Assembly (NCBI GenBank): GCA_902766835.1
Contig: CACXFC010000242.1
Location: 7,132 to 71,131, forward strand
DNA from: an uncultured Coriobacteriaceae bacterium
GTDB lineage: Bacteria; Actinomycetota; Coriobacteriia; Coriobacteriales; Atopobiaceae
DNA: 64,000 nucleotides
Direction: 5' to 3'
Positions within the stretch are counted from its first letter, which is position 1; each line of letters starts with the position of its first letter. A model generated the notes under the pieces. That model saw only the letters and a list, made by a program, of their open reading frames with translations. It searched no databases and had not been told where the DNA came from. This document shows, in pieces, positions 3,156-12,010 of the stretch. The translations under genes and the position numbers were made by a program.

Positions 3156-3175
3156 ATGGCAGAGTTCGTGTACCA
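3156..3175 (+). repeat. attL core (copy of ettA codons 1-7)
   Basis: Identical to 10331-10350. It is preceded by a strong SD, GAGAAGGAG (3142-3150), and now opens only a 15-codon ORF ending at TAG 3201-3203. Confidence 0.85.
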
Positions 3176-3247
3176 TTTACCGCTTCTAGAAAACAGCTGG
3201 TAGTAGGCTTAAAATGTTTTAATCGTAACAAACTACCAGATAAACTT

Positions 3248-3267
3248 ATGGCACAATCTATGGCACA
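3248..3267 (+). repeat. tandem ATGGCACA boxes (candidate integrase arm-type sites, left arm)
   Basis: ATGGCACAATCTATGGCACA. The same two-box arrangement occurs at 10283-10303 in the same orientation. The box also resembles the core start TATGGCAGAG. Confidence 0.5.
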
Positions 3268-3288
3268 AAAGAGAGCCGTAGGGGTGTG

Positions 3289-4449
3289 ATGGAAGTGTTC
3301 TACACAGGTGCAAGTTTGAAGCAAATGCACGATCGGAAGGGCAAGCCGTGGCGCGGAACCTTGCAGTACAAGGATCCCGAAACGCTCAGGTGGAGACAGA
3401 TCACCAAAGTCTTTCCTGATTGCAAGTACAAGAGCGAAGCCAAAAGGGCTTTGGCTGACTGGCAAGCCGAAATGGAAGAAAAGGCAGCTCTTAGAGACAC
3501 GGGAAGAACAGTCGAGACAGTCATTCGCGGATATCTGTCGAACCAAAGGAGCCTGAACAGGATCAGCGTAGTAACCTACCAGAACTCTTTGCGGCTAGCT
3601 GAGACGATCATCTTTCCTAGGATCGGTAAGAAGATCTTTATCGATCTGACGAAGCTAGAAGTCCAGAAGTTCGTGAACGATCTATCGAAGAAGGGCTACA
3701 AGCCTAGTTCTGTACGCACAATCTTTGCCATAGTTTCAAAGACTTACAAGGACTCATTTAGGCGTGACGAAGTTCTGAAGGATCCAACGAAGGGTGTGGA
3801 GCTACCAAGAAATCTCAAGGGACAGATTAACTATCTTGGAGCTGAAGGAAGGCGCAAATTCCTTGCACTAATGACTGGATCGAGCATCTTCTACCTACCG
3901 ACTATGATCGCCTATTACAGCGGCATGAGAGCGGGTGAGATCTGCGCTTTGCAATGGAAGGATATCAACCTTGCAATTGGCACGATCAATATTACAAAGA
4001 CGGCGAAAGACTACCGCACGGACTCAGGCAGGCATGAGGTGGAGATCTCTAACCCGAAGACTCCCAAGAGCGTAAGAACTATCCCAATAATCGATGAACT
4101 GGGCAAGATTCTTAAGGACGCGGCGAAAGATGCGAAGCCAAAGCCTACAGACTACGTGATCGAGTGGAGAAACCCTAGGCTCTTGTGCTCAAGCTTTCAG
4201 AAGTGGGCTACAAGAAACGAGGTAGCAGGAGAAGCGGGTAAGCCAATCACAATGCATGGTCTGAGACACACTTTTGCAACCTTGGGTGTGCAAAGCGGCA
4301 TGGATATCAAGAGCCTTTCATCCATCCTTGGGCACAGCAGCACGGCAATGACTCTAGACACGTACGCAAGCGACGATGAGCAAGCAAAGCGTTTTGCGAT
4401 GAACAACCTATCTAGGTTCTTTCAGAACGAGAGTGAGAATGATCTTTGA
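3289..4449 (+). CDS. tyrosine-type site-specific integrase
   Basis: Catalytic signature blocks MRAGEICALQWKDI (Arg), HGLRHTFATL (H-x-x-R) and LGHSSTAMTLDTYAS (His..Tyr). The N-terminal SAM-like region has VVTYQNSLRL. ATG at 3289 (GTG at 3286 is also possible). Confidence 0.9.
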   Translation: MEVFYTGASLKQMHDRKGKPWRGTLQYKDPETLRWRQITKVFPDCKYKSEAKRALADWQAEMEEKAALRDTGRTVETVIRGYLSNQRSLNRISVVTYQNSLRLAETIIFPRIGKKIFIDLTKLEVQKFVNDLSKKGYKPSSVRTIFAIVSKTYKDSFRRDEVLKDPTKGVELPRNLKGQINYLGAEGRRKFLALMTGSSIFYLPTMIAYYSGMRAGEICALQWKDINLAIGTINITKTAKDYRTDSGRHEVEISNPKTPKSVRTIPIIDELGKILKDAAKDAKPKPTDYVIEWRNPRLLCSSFQKWATRNEVAGEAGKPITMHGLRHTFATLGVQSGMDIKSLSSILGHSSTAMTLDTYASDDEQAKRFAMNNLSRFFQNESENDL

Positions 4450-5042
4450 TGGACTATCTAGAGTGGATGAAACTACAAGAGAGCATGATCAGCTATGCGG
4501 AACAGTTGCGTGAGAAGATCAGCTTTATCGACCCTGAAGGAAGGCGCAAGCTGGATCCGTACTACTTCCTTTCTGGTGAGGTTGCCGCCTACAAGCTTCT
4601 AAGCTCTTGGATCAACTCCATGAGAAGGGGAAACGACGTTGTAGATGAGAGGGTAGGAGATCTAGTAGACCTGATCAGGAAGTTGGTCGAAGAGGATTAC
4701 GAAGACTATCAGATCTACGAAGCGGAAATAAGCATGCCACTTTGGTATGAGCTTATGAAGGGCTTCAGTGGTGATGCATTATCTAACTTCAATTCAGAGA
4801 TCCTAGTGCTTGCAAGTATTGCGGAAGTGAGATCTGGAATCTCGCCTGAGAACACGATTATTTGCACAATGACCGACGATGAGCTAACAGACGCAAATCT
4901 TGTTTCCTATGCGTATAGCCTAGTTCATGACTACCTGTTAGGATTGTCGAGGGAAGATTTAGAGTCGTTCGCACAAAAGGGCTTTGGCCTGAATGCGGAA
5001 AAAGGCGAACTCTACAAGCTTCACTTCAACTTATTCCAATAG
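4449..5042 (+). CDS. hypothetical protein (element-encoded, helical, acidic)
   Basis: ATG at 4449 overlaps the integrase TGA (TGATG coupling). 197 aa with no motif I recognise. Confidence 0.6.
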   Translation: MDYLEWMKLQESMISYAEQLREKISFIDPEGRRKLDPYYFLSGEVAAYKLLSSWINSMRRGNDVVDERVGDLVDLIRKLVEEDYEDYQIYEAEISMPLWYELMKGFSGDALSNFNSEILVLASIAEVRSGISPENTIICTMTDDELTDANLVSYAYSLVHDYLLGLSREDLESFAQKGFGLNAEKGELYKLHFNLFQ

Positions 5043-5055
5043 AAGAGAAAGGGCT

Positions 5056-5400
5056 ATGGGAATGAATAAGAGCGAAGCACAGGCTAAGCTAAGGGAACTT
5101 GCACGTGAGATTGGTGATTTCGACTTGTATGATGCAGCACAGGACACAGATCTTGCCTTCAGTCTTCTAGAAAAGAAGTTTGAAGATGCGGCAACACCTA
5201 TTGTCGAGATTTCGGGCAAGCAACTCACAAACAAGAGTTGCTTTAAGAAGAATGCCGACAGAAGAAAGTTCCTTCAGAGGGTGATTCGCAAAGAGACCAA
5301 TGATGAGTTCAAGGTCTTGTATGAACAGGAACTAGAGCTAATTGAGACTTATGCGTTTCTTGCTTTGGAGTATCTGTTTGGTGAGATTGCCACAAAGTAG
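5056..5400 (+). CDS. hypothetical protein (element-encoded)
   Basis: ATG at 5056 follows AGAAGAGAAAGGG. 114 aa, MGMNKSEAQAKLRELAREIG..., no recognisable motif. Confidence 0.55.
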   Translation: MGMNKSEAQAKLRELAREIGDFDLYDAAQDTDLAFSLLEKKFEDAATPIVEISGKQLTNKSCFKKNADRRKFLQRVIRKETNDEFKVLYEQELELIETYAFLALEYLFGEIATK

Positions 5401-5465
5401 CCTTTATCAGGTCTTTACCGTTGGATGGTCGAGTTGCCGTCTAATGGAAATAGCACCTCTTTTCA

Positions 5466-5474
5466 TGCTACAAT
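5466..5474 (+). promoter_or_regulatory. extended -10-like box TGCTACAAT
   Basis: TGnTAcAAT lies about 8 nt upstream of the first base of the long stem at 5482. No convincing -35. Confidence 0.3.
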
Positions 5475-5481
5475 CCACATA

Positions 5482-5617
5482 ACCACAACCGCGGGAACTT
5501 GTCTGTAAAGGCAAGTGTTCGCATCTTTGACAATCCAGCTAGCTACCACCTTGGAGGGCACTCCTGCCTTTCGGGTGAATGCTAGCTGTTAAAGCTGCGA
5601 ACGCTCGCGGTTGTGGT
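5482..5617 (+). ncRNA. candidate structured RNA / 5' leader (multi-stem, ~136 nt)
   Basis: A perfect 12-bp closing stem pairs ACCACAACCGCG (5482-5493) with CGCGGTTGTGGT (5606-5617). Inner pairings: GTTCGC (5517-5522) with GCGAAC (5598-5603), and CAGCTAGC (5536-5543) with GCTAGCTG (5581-5588). Local hairpins at 5494-5516 and GGAG/CTCC at 5553-5564. No long ORF in the interval. Confidence 0.45.
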
Positions 5618-5696
5618 GACTGTGGTTGGAGTGTCCTCCAAAATGGTCTCGCACCCCTTCCATGGTGAATGTCGGAGTTCCTTGGAAGGAGTCGCT

Positions 5697-5786
5697 ATGA
5701 GTGGTTCTAACAACAGCGGTTGCAGCCTCGTAATTCTGGTCGCGCTGGGGGTCTTTTTGGGCCTCGTGCTCTTTGCTGTGGGATAA
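5697..5786 (+). CDS. 29-aa hydrophobic peptide (type I toxin-like or leader peptide)
   Basis: ATG at 5697 follows GGAAGGAG. Sequence MSGSNNSGCSLVILVALGVFLGLVLFAVG, then TAA at 5784-5786. The SD GGAAGG (5684-5689) can pair with CCTTCC (5656-5661). It is below the ORF-track size cutoff. Confidence 0.4.
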   Translation: MSGSNNSGCSLVILVALGVFLGLVLFAVG

Positions 5787-5789
5787 CGC

Positions 5790-6176
5790 ATGACAAAGGG
5801 CAGGGAAGGCTATGAAATACTATTAGACGCAACCATACTACTGGTGTATCTAATAAACAAGAATAGCGACATTCTGTATGGAATCCTTCCCCGCCCGTTC
5901 ATGCGTAACCATTTCAATGATCTGTTGGCAGGCTGCTTGTTTCCTTCATATGTCAACATCGTGCTAAGGACTGCCAGATTTGATTATCAGATAGACAGTC
6001 TACTTAGTGTCCTGATCACAGAAATGGTATGCAGCTTGTTCTGGGAAGTACTTGCGCCGCTGTATCTAGCTAGAAGTACGTGTGATCCTATAGATGTTAT
6101 CTGCTACATATTAGGTGGAATGTTGTATCTCATGTTCATCCTTATTGTTTCAAATAGAAGGGATTGCCAACAATGA
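5790..6176 (+). CDS. small integral membrane protein
   Basis: 128 aa with 3-4 hydrophobic segments (ILLVYLI, LLAGCLFPSYV, LITEMVCSLFWEVLAPL, ICYILGGMLYLMFILIV). Starts 3 nt after the peptide stop. Confidence 0.6.
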   Translation: MTKGREGYEILLDATILLVYLINKNSDILYGILPRPFMRNHFNDLLAGCLFPSYVNIVLRTARFDYQIDSLLSVLITEMVCSLFWEVLAPLYLARSTCDPIDVICYILGGMLYLMFILIVSNRRDCQQ

Positions 6177-6394
6177 CAGACAACGATAACAAGAGCGAGA
6201 ATAGTATCGGCATGTACATTGCTCTGCTTATCATTTTTCTTCTGATTGGCTTTATCAGCAACAGCTGCAACGCACGCTCAAAGCAACGATCCTATACACC
6301 CATGACTGATGATGAGAGGGTCGAGTTCTTCAACAACATATCTGACCCCAGCACACCAGAAGGCAAATGGTACGAGGAAACGTATGGGGACTGA
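6173..6394 (+). CDS. small single-pass membrane protein
   Basis: ATGA start/stop overlap with the preceding ORF. MTDNDNKSENSIGMYIALLIIFLLIGFISNS... has one TM segment. Confidence 0.5.
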   Translation: MTDNDNKSENSIGMYIALLIIFLLIGFISNSCNARSKQRSYTPMTDDERVEFFNNISDPSTPEGKWYEETYGD

Positions 6395-6416
6395 GTCTCT
6401 GAACTTTGGAGAACGG

Positions 6417-6441
6417 CTGGATGCCTACGCAGGGCATCCAG
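6417..6441. terminator. hairpin between convergent genes
   Basis: CTGGATGCC-tacgcag-GGCATCCAG sits between the stop at 6394 (+) and the stop at 6451 (-). Confidence 0.5.
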
Positions 6442-6450
6442 CTCGCCCAC

Positions 6451-7029
6451 CTATTCACGGACAATCCCACGCTCTTTCGCGTACTTGTAGAAGACCGCGC
6501 GGCTGATCCCAACGATCGAGCAGATATCGTTAACGCTCTTGTCGGTGTTCTGGTAGAGATCGAAGGCGGTTGCGAGCTTGTCTTCGCTGACCTTTGACCT
6601 ACCGCCACAACGCCCGTCCTTCTCGCGCTTGATTCTCTGGCCCTCAGCCCTTCTCTCTGCCAAGATCTCGCGTTCGTACTGAGCAAAGCAAGCGGTGATC
6701 CCAAAGAAGAGACGGCCTGTAGCCGTGCGCGTGTCGCATTCGCCTTCTTTGAGGGAAACGAGAGCCACGCCCTTTTCGTTAAGGGTATTGCACAGGCTGA
6801 GAAGATCAGAGAGGTTGCGGGAAAGACGGCTGAAGGATTCGATATAGAGTTCGTCACCCTCAGAGAGAACAGAGAGAAGCTTCTTAAGTTCAGCGCGGTT
6901 TGTGTCTTTGCCGCTCTTCTTTTCGCTGTAGATGTTATCAGCGGGAATGCCCAACTGATCAGCCATCTTCAGTTGGCGTGCAAGGTTCTGGCCCTGAGAA
7001 GAGACGCGGGAATAGAAGAACTTGGACAT
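6451..7029 (-). CDS. serine recombinase (small resolvase/invertase type)
   Basis: MSKFFYSRVSSQGQNLARQ (catalytic Ser block), GDELYIESFSRLSRN, and a C-terminal HTH (SVNDICSIVGISRAVFYKYAKE). Internal ATG at 7029 chosen. Confidence 0.85.
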   Translation of the reverse strand: MSKFFYSRVSSQGQNLARQLKMADQLGIPADNIYSEKKSGKDTNRAELKKLLSVLSEGDELYIESFSRLSRNLSDLLSLCNTLNEKGVALVSLKEGECDTRTATGRLFFGITACFAQYEREILAERRAEGQRIKREKDGRCGGRSKVSEDKLATAFDLYQNTDKSVNDICSIVGISRAVFYKYAKERGIVRE

Positions 7030-7051
7030 TTGGAACCCCCAAAAGGTCGAT

Positions 7052-7191
7052 GTTTTGTCGTTCAACTGTATTTTAACGTAGACAAACAAAAAAGACAATA
7101 TAGACAGTCAAAAAAGACAATCTTTTTTCTCAGCCCTAGCGGTCTACCTTGGCTTAGCCCTTGCGTCTATTTTCGTAGAGCAAAAAAGACA
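7052..7191. promoter_or_regulatory. iterated motifs upstream of the recombinase (candidate res/operator region)
   Basis: AAAAAAGACA occurs as a direct repeat at 7088-7097, 7110-7119 and 7182-7191. TTTGTC (7054-7059) and GACAAA (7081-7086) form an inverted pair 21 bp apart. Near-palindrome AAAAAAGAcaaTCTTTTTT at 7110-7128. Confidence 0.4.
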
Positions 7192-7367
7192 GTCCTTGCA
7201 ACGCGTAACGACAAAAAGTTGGGTCAACTTGAATGATCCGAAAGCCACAAAAACCATTTCTCAGTGAAGCCAAGAGTAAAGAAAGATCAGGGCTGTAGGG
7301 GTCTGCGGCCCTGCTTTTCTTTTGGCTGTTTTGTTTGAAAAATCCTTTGAAGAAAGAAGGTCTGGAT

Positions 7368-7532
7368 ATGACGAAAGAAAAGAGAGTGGATCGATCAAAG
7401 TACTTTTCCCATTTGGGCGTAGAGATCCCGCGCGATCAGCACGACAGAATCAGGGCGATAGCCAAGAGTAAAGAGATCTCGATCAGCCAACTTGTGCGGC
7501 GTGCGCTGAATGAGTACTTGGCTAAGTGCTAA
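7368..7532 (+). CDS. ribbon-helix-helix (CopG-like) DNA-binding protein
   Basis: ATG at 7368 follows GAAGG. MTKEKRVDRSKYFSHLGVEIPRDQHDRIRAIAKSKEISISQLVRRALNEYLAKC has an RHH-like strand plus two helices. Confidence 0.6.
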   Translation: MTKEKRVDRSKYFSHLGVEIPRDQHDRIRAIAKSKEISISQLVRRALNEYLAKC

Positions 7533-7544
7533 GGGGTGATCACC

Positions 7545-9140
7545 TTGGCTTCAAAGTATTTGAGTGAATCGGATTTGGAGCTAAGCCAATGGGATCGAGA
7601 AAGAGAGATCGGATTGATAGCCGTCCCGTGCGGCCTAGGTAAGACGTATGCAAGCGTTCATTGGTTGTGAAGGATCCTAGGGATTGATCCTAAAGAAACG
7701 CTGTTGCTATCGCCTAGACGTGGGATCAGGAAACAGACGCTTGATAGCTACCCCGATCAGGTTGAGCGATTCACGGTCAGCGGATCAGCCTTTTCTAGCA
7801 AAGTTCAGATCGAGACGGTTCACAAGATCGGCTGTTGGTATCGCTTGGATTATGCCTACCCCAAACCTAGGCTTGTGATCATCGATGAATTTCACACCCT
7901 GTTTAGCGAAACCCACTTTGCTAGGGATCTGATCTATTTCTATCAGCAGCTTCTAGAGTGGATCGATGATCCTAGCGTTACCCTGATCGCCCTAACGGCC
8001 ACGACAACGCTACCCCTAGAGTTTGTGAACCAACAGCCCTTCAAGGGCTTTGAATGGCTCTATCAGAGCTTTCAAGGATTTAGGATCCGCAAGATATCTA
8101 GGGATCTTGATCCGCCTTACAAAGCGCAAGTTGTGCAGATCGAGAGCGGCAAGAGCCTAGAGACAGTTCTTAGACAATGCCCCGCAAGCCCCGATAACAA
8201 ACAGCTTGTTTTCGTGCGGGGAACAGCCGCAAAGCTTGTTAGCTTGGCTGAGAGTGAGGATCGATCTAGTTGGCTTTGCTCTGAAGAATCCAAGAGAGAA
8301 GTAAATGGTATCAAGGCGGCTGATCTGATGGATCAGGATCATCTTTCATCGATTCTTAGCGGCTACCTACCTGAGACAGTAGATCGGATCTATCTAACTA
8401 GCGCCTATCGTGAGGGGATTAACATCCACGATGAAGCGGTGCAGGAAGTAATTATCGAGGGTGCAAGTGATATCGAGCTGATTCAGGCGTTAGGGCGTGT
8501 GCGGCACCCGATCAAACGTCTGATCATCGTCATTGATGCCCGCAAGTTTCAGAACGGTGATCGAAAGATCAGAGAAGCGCTTGATCTGTTGGATAGCGGG
8601 GATCTAGAAGCTTATTACAAAAGGCAAGAGAAGCAGGATTTAGAAGGTTTTGAAGGCGAGAGAGTGCCCAACTTAGTCTTTAGGAACAAGTACACAAGGG
8701 AACTGAGGTTCAACTACCTAGCGCTTTGCTTTTGGTTATTTGACTACTACAGTTCAGCTTGTGCCACTCAGCAGGATTGGAAAGAGATCGAGCTATCAGG
8801 GCGATTGTTTCCTAGCAAGAGAGATTACTTCAGCAGGATCCTAGATCCCTACTCTGAAGGGCCTATCACCTATGACCTGATCAGCTTTGGAAAGCCTAGT
8901 GTAGATCGAGAGAATGCGGAAAAGCTAGAGCGCTTCGATTGGAAAGCCTGAAGCGGAAAAGAGTTGTGCGCAAAGAGCGATCTAGCCTTAGAGTTTGTAA
9001 GCGCTTTGGATTTGCATAACGCAAGCGACTATTCGCAAATGGCACTATCAGGGATCTATGACAACTTTCCTAAGTACTTTGTAAGAAAGCACAGAGTTAA
9101 GAAAAATGGAAAGAGAAAAGTAGTTTATGAATTGGCTTAG
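7545..9140 (+). pseudogene. SF2-type helicase reading frame interrupted by two in-frame TGA codons
   Basis: One frame is open from 7533 to TAG 9138-9140 except for TGA at 7668-7670 and 8949-8951. Walker A AVPCGLGKTYA precedes the first TGA. After it come motif II VIIDEFH, TATT and motif VI QALGRVRH. The 62 codons after the second TGA look coding (..YDNFPKYFVRKHRVKKNGKRKVVYELA). TTG start at 7545 follows AAGGGG. Confidence 0.7.
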
Positions 9141-9152
9141 CCTTTGCGGTGC

Positions 9153-9218
9153 AAAGGCCATTTTTCCAACCAATTTTCCTATGGGATATTAAGAAGTTTG
9201 GTTGGAAAAATGGCCTTT
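9153..9218. repeat. perfect 21-bp inverted repeat directly after the helicase frame
   Basis: AAAGGCCATTTTTCCAACCAA (9153-9173) pairs with TTGGTTGGAAAAATGGCCTTT (9198-9218) across a 24-nt loop. An AT-rich core follows at 9249-9284, flanked by the direct repeat AAGAAAAGA (9240-9248, 9285-9293). Confidence 0.7.
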
Positions 9219-9433
9219 CATTCGCAATATCTGATCCAAAAGAAAAGAGTTTTCAGGATAAAAAATATATTTTATAATTAAATTAAGAAAAGAAATCAGG
9301 CCTGAAATCAAAGATCTATTAAGGAAACTACGTTTCCCTTAGCTTCGCTTGCTTCGCAAGCTTGCTAATTCCTTTCCTTGTGTCGGTTGCTGCGCAACCG
9401 CCACGCCTTTTCAAGAGAAAAGAGGTTTTAGAA

Positions 9434-9622
9434 ATGAATGAAGAGAGATTCAAGATAACGATCTATGCAGATGGTAAGACGCTTGAAGTGCTCGATCTGA
9501 TCTCTGATTGATCGGATCTAGGGATCGAGGAAACGGCTTCCTTACTTTTGGCGCATTCGACCGAAAGAATCAGCGATCTTTACAGGGCAATTTCTGCAAC
9601 GGCCCTAGGAGGTGATCGCTAA
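9434..9622 (+). pseudogene. 62-codon ORF with an in-frame TGA
   Basis: ATG at 9434 follows AAAGAGG. MNEERFKITIYADGKTLEVLDLISD-TGA(9509-9511)-SDLGIEETASLLLAHSTERISDLYRAISATALGGDR. The TAA at 9620-9622 overlaps the ATG of the next gene (TAATG). Confidence 0.35.
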
Positions 9623-10020
9623 TGAATTTGGTTCAGAGCATGGAAAGCTGGTATCTCGCAAGGGATAAGCAGCATCATCTATTGGGCTTAGCCAAGAGCC
9701 AACTAGAAGCGGCCTATGCGGCTGGAATTAATGACGCTAGTTTGGGCAACTACCTAACCAACAAATACTCTTTCTTGGCTAGTGATCTTCGCAAGTTCAG
9801 CCACTTTGAAGGGATCACATCAGCAGAGATCGAAAGACGGTTTGCGGACGATATCGATCACATCCACCACAAGCTAGAGAGCGATATCAGAGCCAATCAG
9901 GCGGATCAGGCTACAGATGAAGCTACGTTCAATGACGTTGTGTTGTGGCCTTTGGTTAAGGAAGAGCTAGAACAGATCGCCCCGCCTGAAGTTGTGATAG
10001 CGCTCGATCTGAAGGCGTAG
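9622..10020 (+). CDS. hypothetical protein (element-encoded)
   Basis: 132-aa ORF with SD TAGGAGGTG. No recognisable motif. Confidence 0.6.
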   Translation: MNLVQSMESWYLARDKQHHLLGLAKSQLEAAYAAGINDASLGNYLTNKYSFLASDLRKFSHFEGITSAEIERRFADDIDHIHHKLESDIRANQADQATDEATFNDVVLWPLVKEELEQIAPPEVVIALDLKA

Positions 10021-10282
10021 GAGCCTTTCTAAGGGCCTAGAAGTGCGGGGATCGATATCTAAGACGTTGGGATAGAAGGCACCCCGAAAACAGGCTTAAA
10101 AGTGCTCTAGTGATATTTTTTGACAGCCTGAGAGGGTTTTTGGTGCATGCTTGATGCTATTGCCCCAAACGTACCCCGCCCCCTACAATTAAATGCATGG
10201 GTTCTGTTGTGGCTCACGTAACGACGAAAGTACAACAAATGATGGATAGATCCCAATCATCCCGAACAATCCGAAAAGATAT

Positions 10283-10303
10283 GTGGCACATATCTATGGC
10301 ACA
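10283..10303 (+). repeat. tandem (G/A)TGGCACA boxes (candidate integrase arm-type sites, right arm)
   Basis: GTGGCACATATCTATGGCACA lies 28 nt before attR, in the same orientation as 3248-3267. Confidence 0.5.
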
Positions 10304-10330
10304 CTAATAGAAAGTGCAGGTAAAAGGCTT

Positions 10331-12010
<1,680 letters not shown>

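Follow-up and report, generated by a model that had tools for sequence, protein, structure and literature searches.

We have analyzed a DNA stretch of 64,000 nucleotides from an uncultured Coriobacteriaceae bacterium (Atopobiaceae; GenBank assembly GCA_902766835.1, contig CACXFC010000242.1, positions 7,132 to 71,131), called here the window, and specifically a region that lies between the gene ORF112 and a convergent serine resolvase gene within a small integrative element. The region contains a promoter-like sequence, a long RNA leader with an elaborate predicted fold and, directly behind it, three genes for small membrane proteins that we call pep29, TM128 and TM73 (Table 1). The leader belongs to a new structured RNA family, absent from Rfam and with covariation support. 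An initial annotation of this DNA had put forward a type I toxin-antitoxin locus and, as a second option, an RNA governing the small membrane proteins at 5697-6394. It is the second option that fits best with the data presented here.

Table 1. Features of the leader locus and of the integrative element that carries it (positions of the window; ORF, open reading frame; MFE, minimum free energy; SD, Shine-Dalgarno sequence; TM, transmembrane)
Feature	Position	Strand	Description or evidence
Integrative element carrying the leader	3156..10350	+	Low-GC (guanine plus cytosine) island, Pfam/NCBIfam matches, direct repeats, joined ends in contig L012
Tyrosine integrase	3286-4449		First in the element gene order
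ORF197	4446-5042		Backbone protein kept across the element family
ORF112	5056-5400		Backbone protein kept across the element family, directly upstream of the leader
Terminator-like hairpin	5409..5464 (core 5418-5447)	+	U-rich tail, after the ORF112 stop; -21.3 kcal/mol, z = -4.1
Promoter (predicted)	5445..5474	+	-35-like TGGAAA 5445-5450, 18-nt spacer, extended -10 TGCTACAAT 5466-5474
Y-shaped domain	5482..5617	+	MFE fold, consensus fold, compensatory changes in P1, P2, P3, P6
P1	5482-5495 with 5604-5617	+	
P2 hairpin	5497-5504 with 5509-5516	+	Loop GUAA
P3	5517-5523 with 5596-5602	+	
P4	5525-5532 with 5587-5594	+	
P5	5538-5543 with 5581-5586	+	
P6	5547-5560 with 5565-5577	+	Loop CUCC
Linker and P7a/P7	5618..5653	+	Begins with sequence-invariant GAC
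P7a	5621-5625 (UGUGG) with 5649-5653 (UCGCA)	+	Surrounds P7; 3' strand changes yet remains paired
P7 hairpin	5626-5631 (UUGGAG) with 5636-5641 (CUCCAA)	+	Loop UGUC
SD-occluding helix P8	5653..5692	+	Anti-SD (A)CCCCUUCC 5653-5661 with SD GGAAGGAG(U) 5684-5692
pep29	5697..5786 (ATG 5697, stop 5784-5786)	+	29-aa single-TM peptide MSGSNNSGCSLVILVALGVFLGLVLFAVG, first cistron of the cargo operon
TM128	5790..6176	+	4-helix membrane protein; start codon 3 nt after the pep29 stop
TM73	6173..6394	+	73-aa single-TM protein; ATG overlaps the TM128 stop (ATGA); gene also called in L001-L010
Serine resolvase	6451-7098	-	Convergent, downstream of leader and cargo
Ribbon-helix-helix protein	7335-7532		ORF56 copy-control type
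Split helicase-like gene	7536-8951		
ORF132	9622-10020		Last in the listed gene order

The predicted fold spans 5482-5692 and is made of a Y-shaped domain of 136 nt, a small hairpin and a helix that pairs with the SD of the first gene behind it. On the plus strand the MFE of 5466-5700 was -113.2 kcal/mol, compared with -72.3 +/- 4.6 when dinucleotides were shuffled (z = -8.85, with none of 200 shuffles matching it), and the folding of the minus strand was weaker (z = -6.79). The interval 5401-5696, described before as devoid of credible ORFs, has in fact none longer than 46 aa and none that is kept in the homologues. The pairings that had been proposed were checked against the sequence. The 12-bp closing stem is exact, since 5482-5493 (ACCACAACCGCG) is the reverse complement of 5606-5617 (CGCGGTTGTGGT), and it reaches 14 bp by adding G5494-U5605 and G5495-C5604. 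The segments 5536-5543 and 5581-5588 are also reverse complements, as claimed. In the case of the inner helix that begins with 5517-5522 (GTTCGC) the pairing was right but its partner is 5597-5602 and not 5598-5603, the complete helix being P3. In the linker and P7 region the consensus fold allows an alternative local hairpin. Besides, UGUGGU appears three times between 5610 and 5650 (once within the 3' strand of P1, once in the linker and once behind P7) and CCRCA twice, and P6, P7 and P8 contain three SD-like and three anti-SD-like segments, so that several alternative pairings are possible. The conservation of any alternative pairing among these repeats as a switch could not be demonstrated.

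To find homologues we inspected the contigs of ORF197 and ORF112 relatives. Ten metagenome contigs hold the same element at 99.7-100% identity and, being without variation, they were of no use for covariation. Five more distinct close variants (L023, L011, L037/L038, L025-L027 and L028-L034), 80-94% identical to the window, were found in related 7-kb integrative elements, all of them directly downstream of an ORF112 homologue. A divergent seventh copy, in Adlercreutzia caecimuris (L040, 2351-2621), was reached through the TM128 family (R1 26.5 bits, E about 1e-7), and its leader alone folds at z = -6.5 to -6.9. The covariance model built from the window and the five close variants finds one copy per element and none elsewhere in the window, with 252-274 bits on the forward strand versus 20-40 bits on the reverse. 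Over these six sequences, standard pairs occupy 97.5% of the cells, a value that falls to 39-47% once the partners are slid by 1-3 columns. Changes on both sides affect six pairs (five in P2 and one in P8), and the covariation score was matched by only one of 500 shuffles. With L040 added, aligned by hand helix by helix (the weakest link of the structure support), the compensatory pairs are four in P1, six in P2, two in P3 and one each in P6 and P7a. In P1 of L040, for example, CGCG/CGCG has become UGUU/AACA, and in P3 a U-A pair has become A-U. All the one-sided changes yield G-U, where the opposite strand would have an A-C mismatch; this and the low scores of the reverse strand indicate that the structure belongs to the plus strand.

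Searches outside these elements were negative. Rfam 15 gave zero matches at gathering thresholds in the window, L011, L025 and L040, with only chance snoRNA or miRNA matches at E <= 10. The comparison of the region by blastn with plasmids and phages gave no match, and literature searches turned up nothing relevant. From three DNA-pattern scans of viral contigs, two were empty and the third, with a 16-nt pattern, produced 40 matches of which none fitted the covariance model and which are therefore taken as chance.

The leader also stands out by its conservation. Between variants the Y domain and P7 are 82-98% identical, the gene of ORF112 72-88% and the gene of a lipoprotein found downstream of the leader in most of them 57-87%; by this measure of sequence identity the leader is more conserved than the flanking genes. 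Conservation of the RNA above that of the neighbouring protein genes implies a specific partner or signal. A stretch of 39 nt, comprising the 3' strand of P1, the linker GACUGUGGU and P7 (alignment columns 143-181), is invariant in the six close variants, and even L040 retains the outer 8 bp of P1 and GACUGYGGU. On the other hand, the P2 arm and P4/P5 are missing or replaced in L040 and the three-way junction is not conserved. We sought a complement in trans of the invariant linker in the window, and the matches were no more frequent than expected by chance. A coding upstream ORF across the invariant stretch (frame GCGDCGW) was rejected: its ATG is ACG in L025 and L028, there is no start in L040 and the frame with respect to the downstream gene varies by locus. 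ORF112 itself found no support as an RNA-binding partner of the leader; its confident structural model has no fold match in PDB and the gene occurs also without the leader in four contigs (L012, L015, L024 and L039).

The extended -10-like box that the initial annotation had noticed just upstream was called by the promoter scan and is kept in all seven variants. It reads TGnTA[C/G]AAT in seven of seven and is followed by 6-7 nt, variable in sequence and fixed in length, up to the first base of P1; promoters were called by the scans in both the window and L040. Hairpins at the place of the terminator-like hairpin of the window, with different sequences and then U tracts, are found in L011, L037, L025 and L028. 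The hairpin of the window resembles a terminator and would separate ORF112 from the transcription unit of the leader. A conserved -10 at fixed spacing together with these upstream hairpins suggests that the leader has a transcription unit of its own, beginning most likely at about 5481-5482, the base of P1, in which case the 5' end of the mRNA would lie inside P1. The scan found no terminator after the Y domain, which indicates that the leader runs on into the coding region without a break. A further helix proposed by alifold (P0, pairing the -10 box with the linker) was discarded. Both of its sides are invariant, a C-to-G change in L023 keeps the -10 consensus yet breaks the pair, and the spacer behaves like a discriminator.

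At the other end of the leader, the pairing of CCTTCC (5656-5661) with the SD GGAAGG (5684-5689) was borne out, and SD occlusion is predicted in the window and in its relatives. The predicted pairing probability of the SD is about 1 in five of the six close variants and partial in L011. P8 alone amounts to -14 to -20 kcal/mol; its loop differs in sequence and length with both arms conserved, and at its outer end there is one compensatory pair. In L040 a 9-nt anti-SD is retained (CUCUCCUUC versus GAAGGAGAG) over a loop of about 100 nt, and a second CCUCC segment competes there for the SD.

We have also compared what lies behind the leader. In all the close variants but the window (five of six), the gene behind the SD codes for a lipoprotein of about 370 aa that has a lipobox (LFGCG). 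Identity among these lipoproteins is 45-91%, and they match only phrog_806, a family without assigned function, and no Pfam family. In the window the lipoprotein gene is replaced by pep29, TM128 and TM73; the window and L023 cease to be homologous close to the SD and are so again from 6467 onwards, next to the resolvase gene's 3' end. In L040 the leader heads ORF102, a pep29 homologue, a TM128 homologue and two small TM proteins, with a resolvase gene downstream. The presence of lipoprotein cargo in the close variants and of pep29/TM128 cargo in L040 indicates that related leaders are native to both types of cargo, and the arrangement of the window appears to have arisen by recombination within or beside the leader. 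The slot that holds the cargo extends from the stop codon of ORF112 to the 3' end of the resolvase gene (5400-6464), and relatives without the leader carry in the same slot restriction-modification genes or other lipoproteins. Such varied contents mark the slot as a cargo site. In L018, L019, L024, L012 and L039 the slot contains genes for a PvuII-like endonuclease accompanied by an N4/N6 methyltransferase and a RelB-like protein, genes for unrelated lipoproteins, or small ORFs. Searches with the lipoprotein and TM128 in viral contigs, phages and plasmids gave a single match, in a C. difficile plasmid.

The 29-codon ORF, read before as a single TM helix, is a real gene, with its ATG 5 nt past the SD and a homologue at the same position in Adlercreutzia (L040 2943-3032, MANGNGGCGQVVIIALGIFCGLVLFAFIG, 58% identical over 24 residues). 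In the C. difficile plasmid a peptide of 21 aa (MGFWKMVGAMLVALVIFGLCG) overlaps the start of the TM128 homologue, both genes being unannotated. TM128 has about 600 relatives at E <= 1e-3, with homologues at L040 3001-3435 and L086 2462-2878 (CP103805.1). The residues D44, E86, D99 and D102 are invariant in the family, and the AlphaFold2 model of four helices has a predicted local distance difference test (pLDDT) value of 94.5; no match was found in Pfam, NCBIfam, PADLOC or PDB, fold search included. In the three contexts inspected, a gene for a hydrophobic peptide of 21-29 aa precedes TM128. The gap of 3 nt between pep29 and TM128 and the overlap between TM128 and TM73 indicate a coupled operon. 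Small hydrophobic accessory subunits of membrane complexes are known, such as KdpF, CydX and AcrZ. Like them, pep29 is within 20-50 aa, has a single TM helix and is co-operonic and conserved with a membrane-protein partner; unlike them, its putative partner belongs to a family without known function. From this context, the likeliest role of pep29 is that of a small subunit or partner of TM128 and not of a type I toxin.

The element that carries the leader had been suspected to be mobile, and this was confirmed. It is a low-GC island of 7,175 bp (47% versus 60-65% in the host) flanked by a perfect 20-nt direct repeat (ATGGCAGAGTTCGTGTACCA) at 3156-3175 and 10331-10350. In contig L012 the right and left ends of the element are fused through one copy of the repeat (L012 2935-2954), and circular permutation or concatemers appear also in L018, L024, L037 and L038, indicating that the element is integrative and has also a circular form. 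One of the relatives, L011, comes from a rumen Coriobacteriaceae metagenome-assembled genome. ORF112 and ORF197 have no match in Pfam, NCBIfam, PHROG or PADLOC, and PADLOC gave zero matches among all the cargo and backbone proteins; the AlphaFold2 model of ORF112 (pLDDT 91.5) is helical with a small beta-hairpin. The helicase-like gene comes in two parts, an ORF of 44 aa (7536-7670, with the Walker A motif GLGKT) and another of 415 aa in a different frame (7704-8951), and its relative in L022 is an intact DEAD/ResIII protein of 568 aa. The split is the same in every metagenome copy that spans the gene, and is either a fixed frameshift or a genuine arrangement of two genes. Positions 1-138 of L008 have no match to the window, the remainder of that contig being identical, and may come from a chimeric assembly or from another junction. 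Two other explanations of the repeats were discarded at this level. A retron noncoding RNA was rejected because the element has no reverse transcriptase in the Pfam/NCBIfam scans, and an invertase switch or res site because, instead of two terminal sites, the repeats form nested helices that contain G-U pairs.

We consider it probable, with some reserve, that the RNA is a cis-acting leader that holds the translation of envelope-protein cargo off by default, probably stabilizes the mRNA, and is opened by a factor that reads the base of P1 and the linker. Under this interpretation 5466-5696 would hold the promoter of the element's cargo operon together with its 5' leader. The 5' end of the mRNA would be buried in the 14-bp stem that closes the Y domain of 136 nt, followed by the sequence-invariant linker with its hairpin and then by an anti-SD of CUCCUUCC type paired to the SD of the first cargo gene. 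Ribosome binding would thus be blocked in cis by default, the paired 5' end would probably shield the mRNA from 5'-end-dependent decay, and translation would need the opening of the anti-SD/SD helix. Candidates for the trigger are a trans-acting protein or RNA that binds the P1 base and GACUGYGGU, RNase III cutting the long duplex, or a ligand. The leader would act as a portable module for at least two types of cargo, the lipoprotein of about 370 aa and the operon of pep29, the 4-TM protein and a small TM protein, and in the lineage of the window the second type lies behind a leader of the lipoprotein type, with the switch point close to the SD. RNase III-activated or 5'-stabilizer leaders are known in phage lambda cIII, T7 0.3, ompA (its 5' untranslated region, UTR) and B. 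subtilis aprE. These are also long irregular 5' duplexes that control stability and ribosome access, although they have no sequence or family relationship with the leader described here.

Several points weigh against this interpretation. The compensatory changes outside P2 depend mostly on the hand-aligned L040, and a formal covariation test would need more than the seven distinct sequences, of which six are close. Conservation peaks in the stems and linker and not in the loops, which implies sequence-specific recognition and does not tell by what, and no trigger was identified. Both the start site and the lack of an antisense RNA were deduced from the DNA sequence. Finally, the anti-SD/SD helix of L040 is outside its MFE structure, 2.7 kcal/mol above it, and the SD is there only partly paired.

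A leader triggered by a small molecule or an ion would amount to a translational riboswitch, with the Y domain as its aptamer. Binding would shift the UGUGGU/CCRCA pairing to free the SD of envelope genes, possibly of transporters. The architecture resembles that of translational riboswitches, with a structured domain that immediately precedes the SD-occluding helix serving as expression platform, no terminator, and repeats (the three copies of UGUGGU and two of CCRCA) that permit alternative pairings; the invariant acidic residues in the membrane protein TM128 also recall small ion transporters. However, the junctions are nearly fully stacked and the loops variable, and in the seven sequences, a small set for such a decision, conservation appears to lie in the stems and linker and not in a pocket. 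To this must be added that the arms lost or replaced in L040 include those that form the three-way junction, that no Rfam class matches and that the cargo includes a lipoprotein of 370 aa without metabolic link. We regard a riboswitch as unlikely.

Another possibility is that the RNA is only an mRNA stabilizer. The 5'-terminal helix would guard against 5'-end-dependent nucleases, and the pairing of the SD would be a side effect or a means of lowering expression. The predicted start at the first paired base of the 14-bp helix in all the variants agrees with it. But such a function needs structure and not sequence, and it does not account for the 39 nt that are invariant in six variants, for the P1 base and GACUGYGGU kept in L040, or for an anti-SD conserved in both sequence and position, so we find it quite unlikely that stabilization is the whole function.

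The type I toxin-antitoxin locus preferred in the initial annotation is not supported by the comparison. In such a system pep29 would be a membrane-damaging toxin, the folded leader would keep its mRNA untranslatable and an antisense or divergent small RNA would be the antitoxin, the whole stabilizing the element. The leaders of hok/Sok, tisB/IstR-1 and zorO/OrzO are alike in having a long folded 5' UTR with the 5' end in a helix, an upstream anti-SD over the SD and a small hydrophobic ORF on a mobile element, and here too the product is small, fully hydrophobic, of a single TM helix and conserved. Unlike those systems, the leader is shared with a lipoprotein gene, which it heads in five of six close variants, and is hence not dedicated to the peptide. 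pep29 does not stand alone either; it is the first cistron of a membrane operon, coupled to TM128 and TM73, and the pair of peptide and 4-TM protein is seen again in Adlercreutzia and C. difficile. The analysis found no antitoxin RNA. In L040 a consensus-level promoter match on the minus strand (2652-2623; TTGACC, 16-18 nt, GATATT/TATTTT) lies within the first gene of the operon and points towards the SD and the leader, but it has no counterpart in the window, where a consensus scan, which cannot exclude an antisense RNA, gave no minus-strand promoter match in 5400-6400; no conserved antisense promoter was found. Overall we see a type I system as very unlikely here. It is still more improbable that the region acts at the DNA level, folded as single-stranded DNA in a single-strand origin, a transfer-related site or an attC-like site for cassette exchange near the serine recombinase: nested inverted repeats do occur where the cargo varies, in an element with a circular form, with a resolvase gene downstream in every locus (L040 included) and G-T wobbles tolerated, but a -10 box kept at constant spacing and a conserved anti-SD/SD pairing belong to the level of RNA, the Pfam/NCBIfam scans of the element proteins showed neither a rolling-circle Rep nor a relaxase, the cassette boundaries in the leader-less loci are at the ORF112 stop codon and not inside a hairpin, the integrase scored 52.8 bits against a TIGR02249 cut-off of 265, far below an integron integrase, and CCACAAC and GTTGTGG misfit the RYYYAAC / GTTRRRY core-site consensus.

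A cis-acting leader that keeps the cargo silent by default could be taken one step further, to a new class of sensor RNA on mobile cargo. A signal from a ligand, or from a factor of the host or of the element, at the P1 base and the linker would switch on envelope-modifying cargo, either an exclusion-type lipoprotein or the pair of pep29 and the 4-TM protein, in one defined condition only, and the shared leader would serve as a homology patch for cassette exchange. We hold this extension as doubtful at present. If true, the pair of pep29 and the 4-TM protein would be a widespread unannotated membrane effector silenced by RNA structure.

For annotation, these data indicate that a hydrophobic mini-ORF with an occluded SD is insufficient to call a type I toxin. 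They also bring to light a conserved module of a peptide and a 4-TM protein, with about 600 relatives that lack annotation, and indicate that one regulatory leader can serve unrelated cargo cassettes within a family of 7-kb elements, integrative and plasmid-like, from Coriobacteriia of the rumen and gut.

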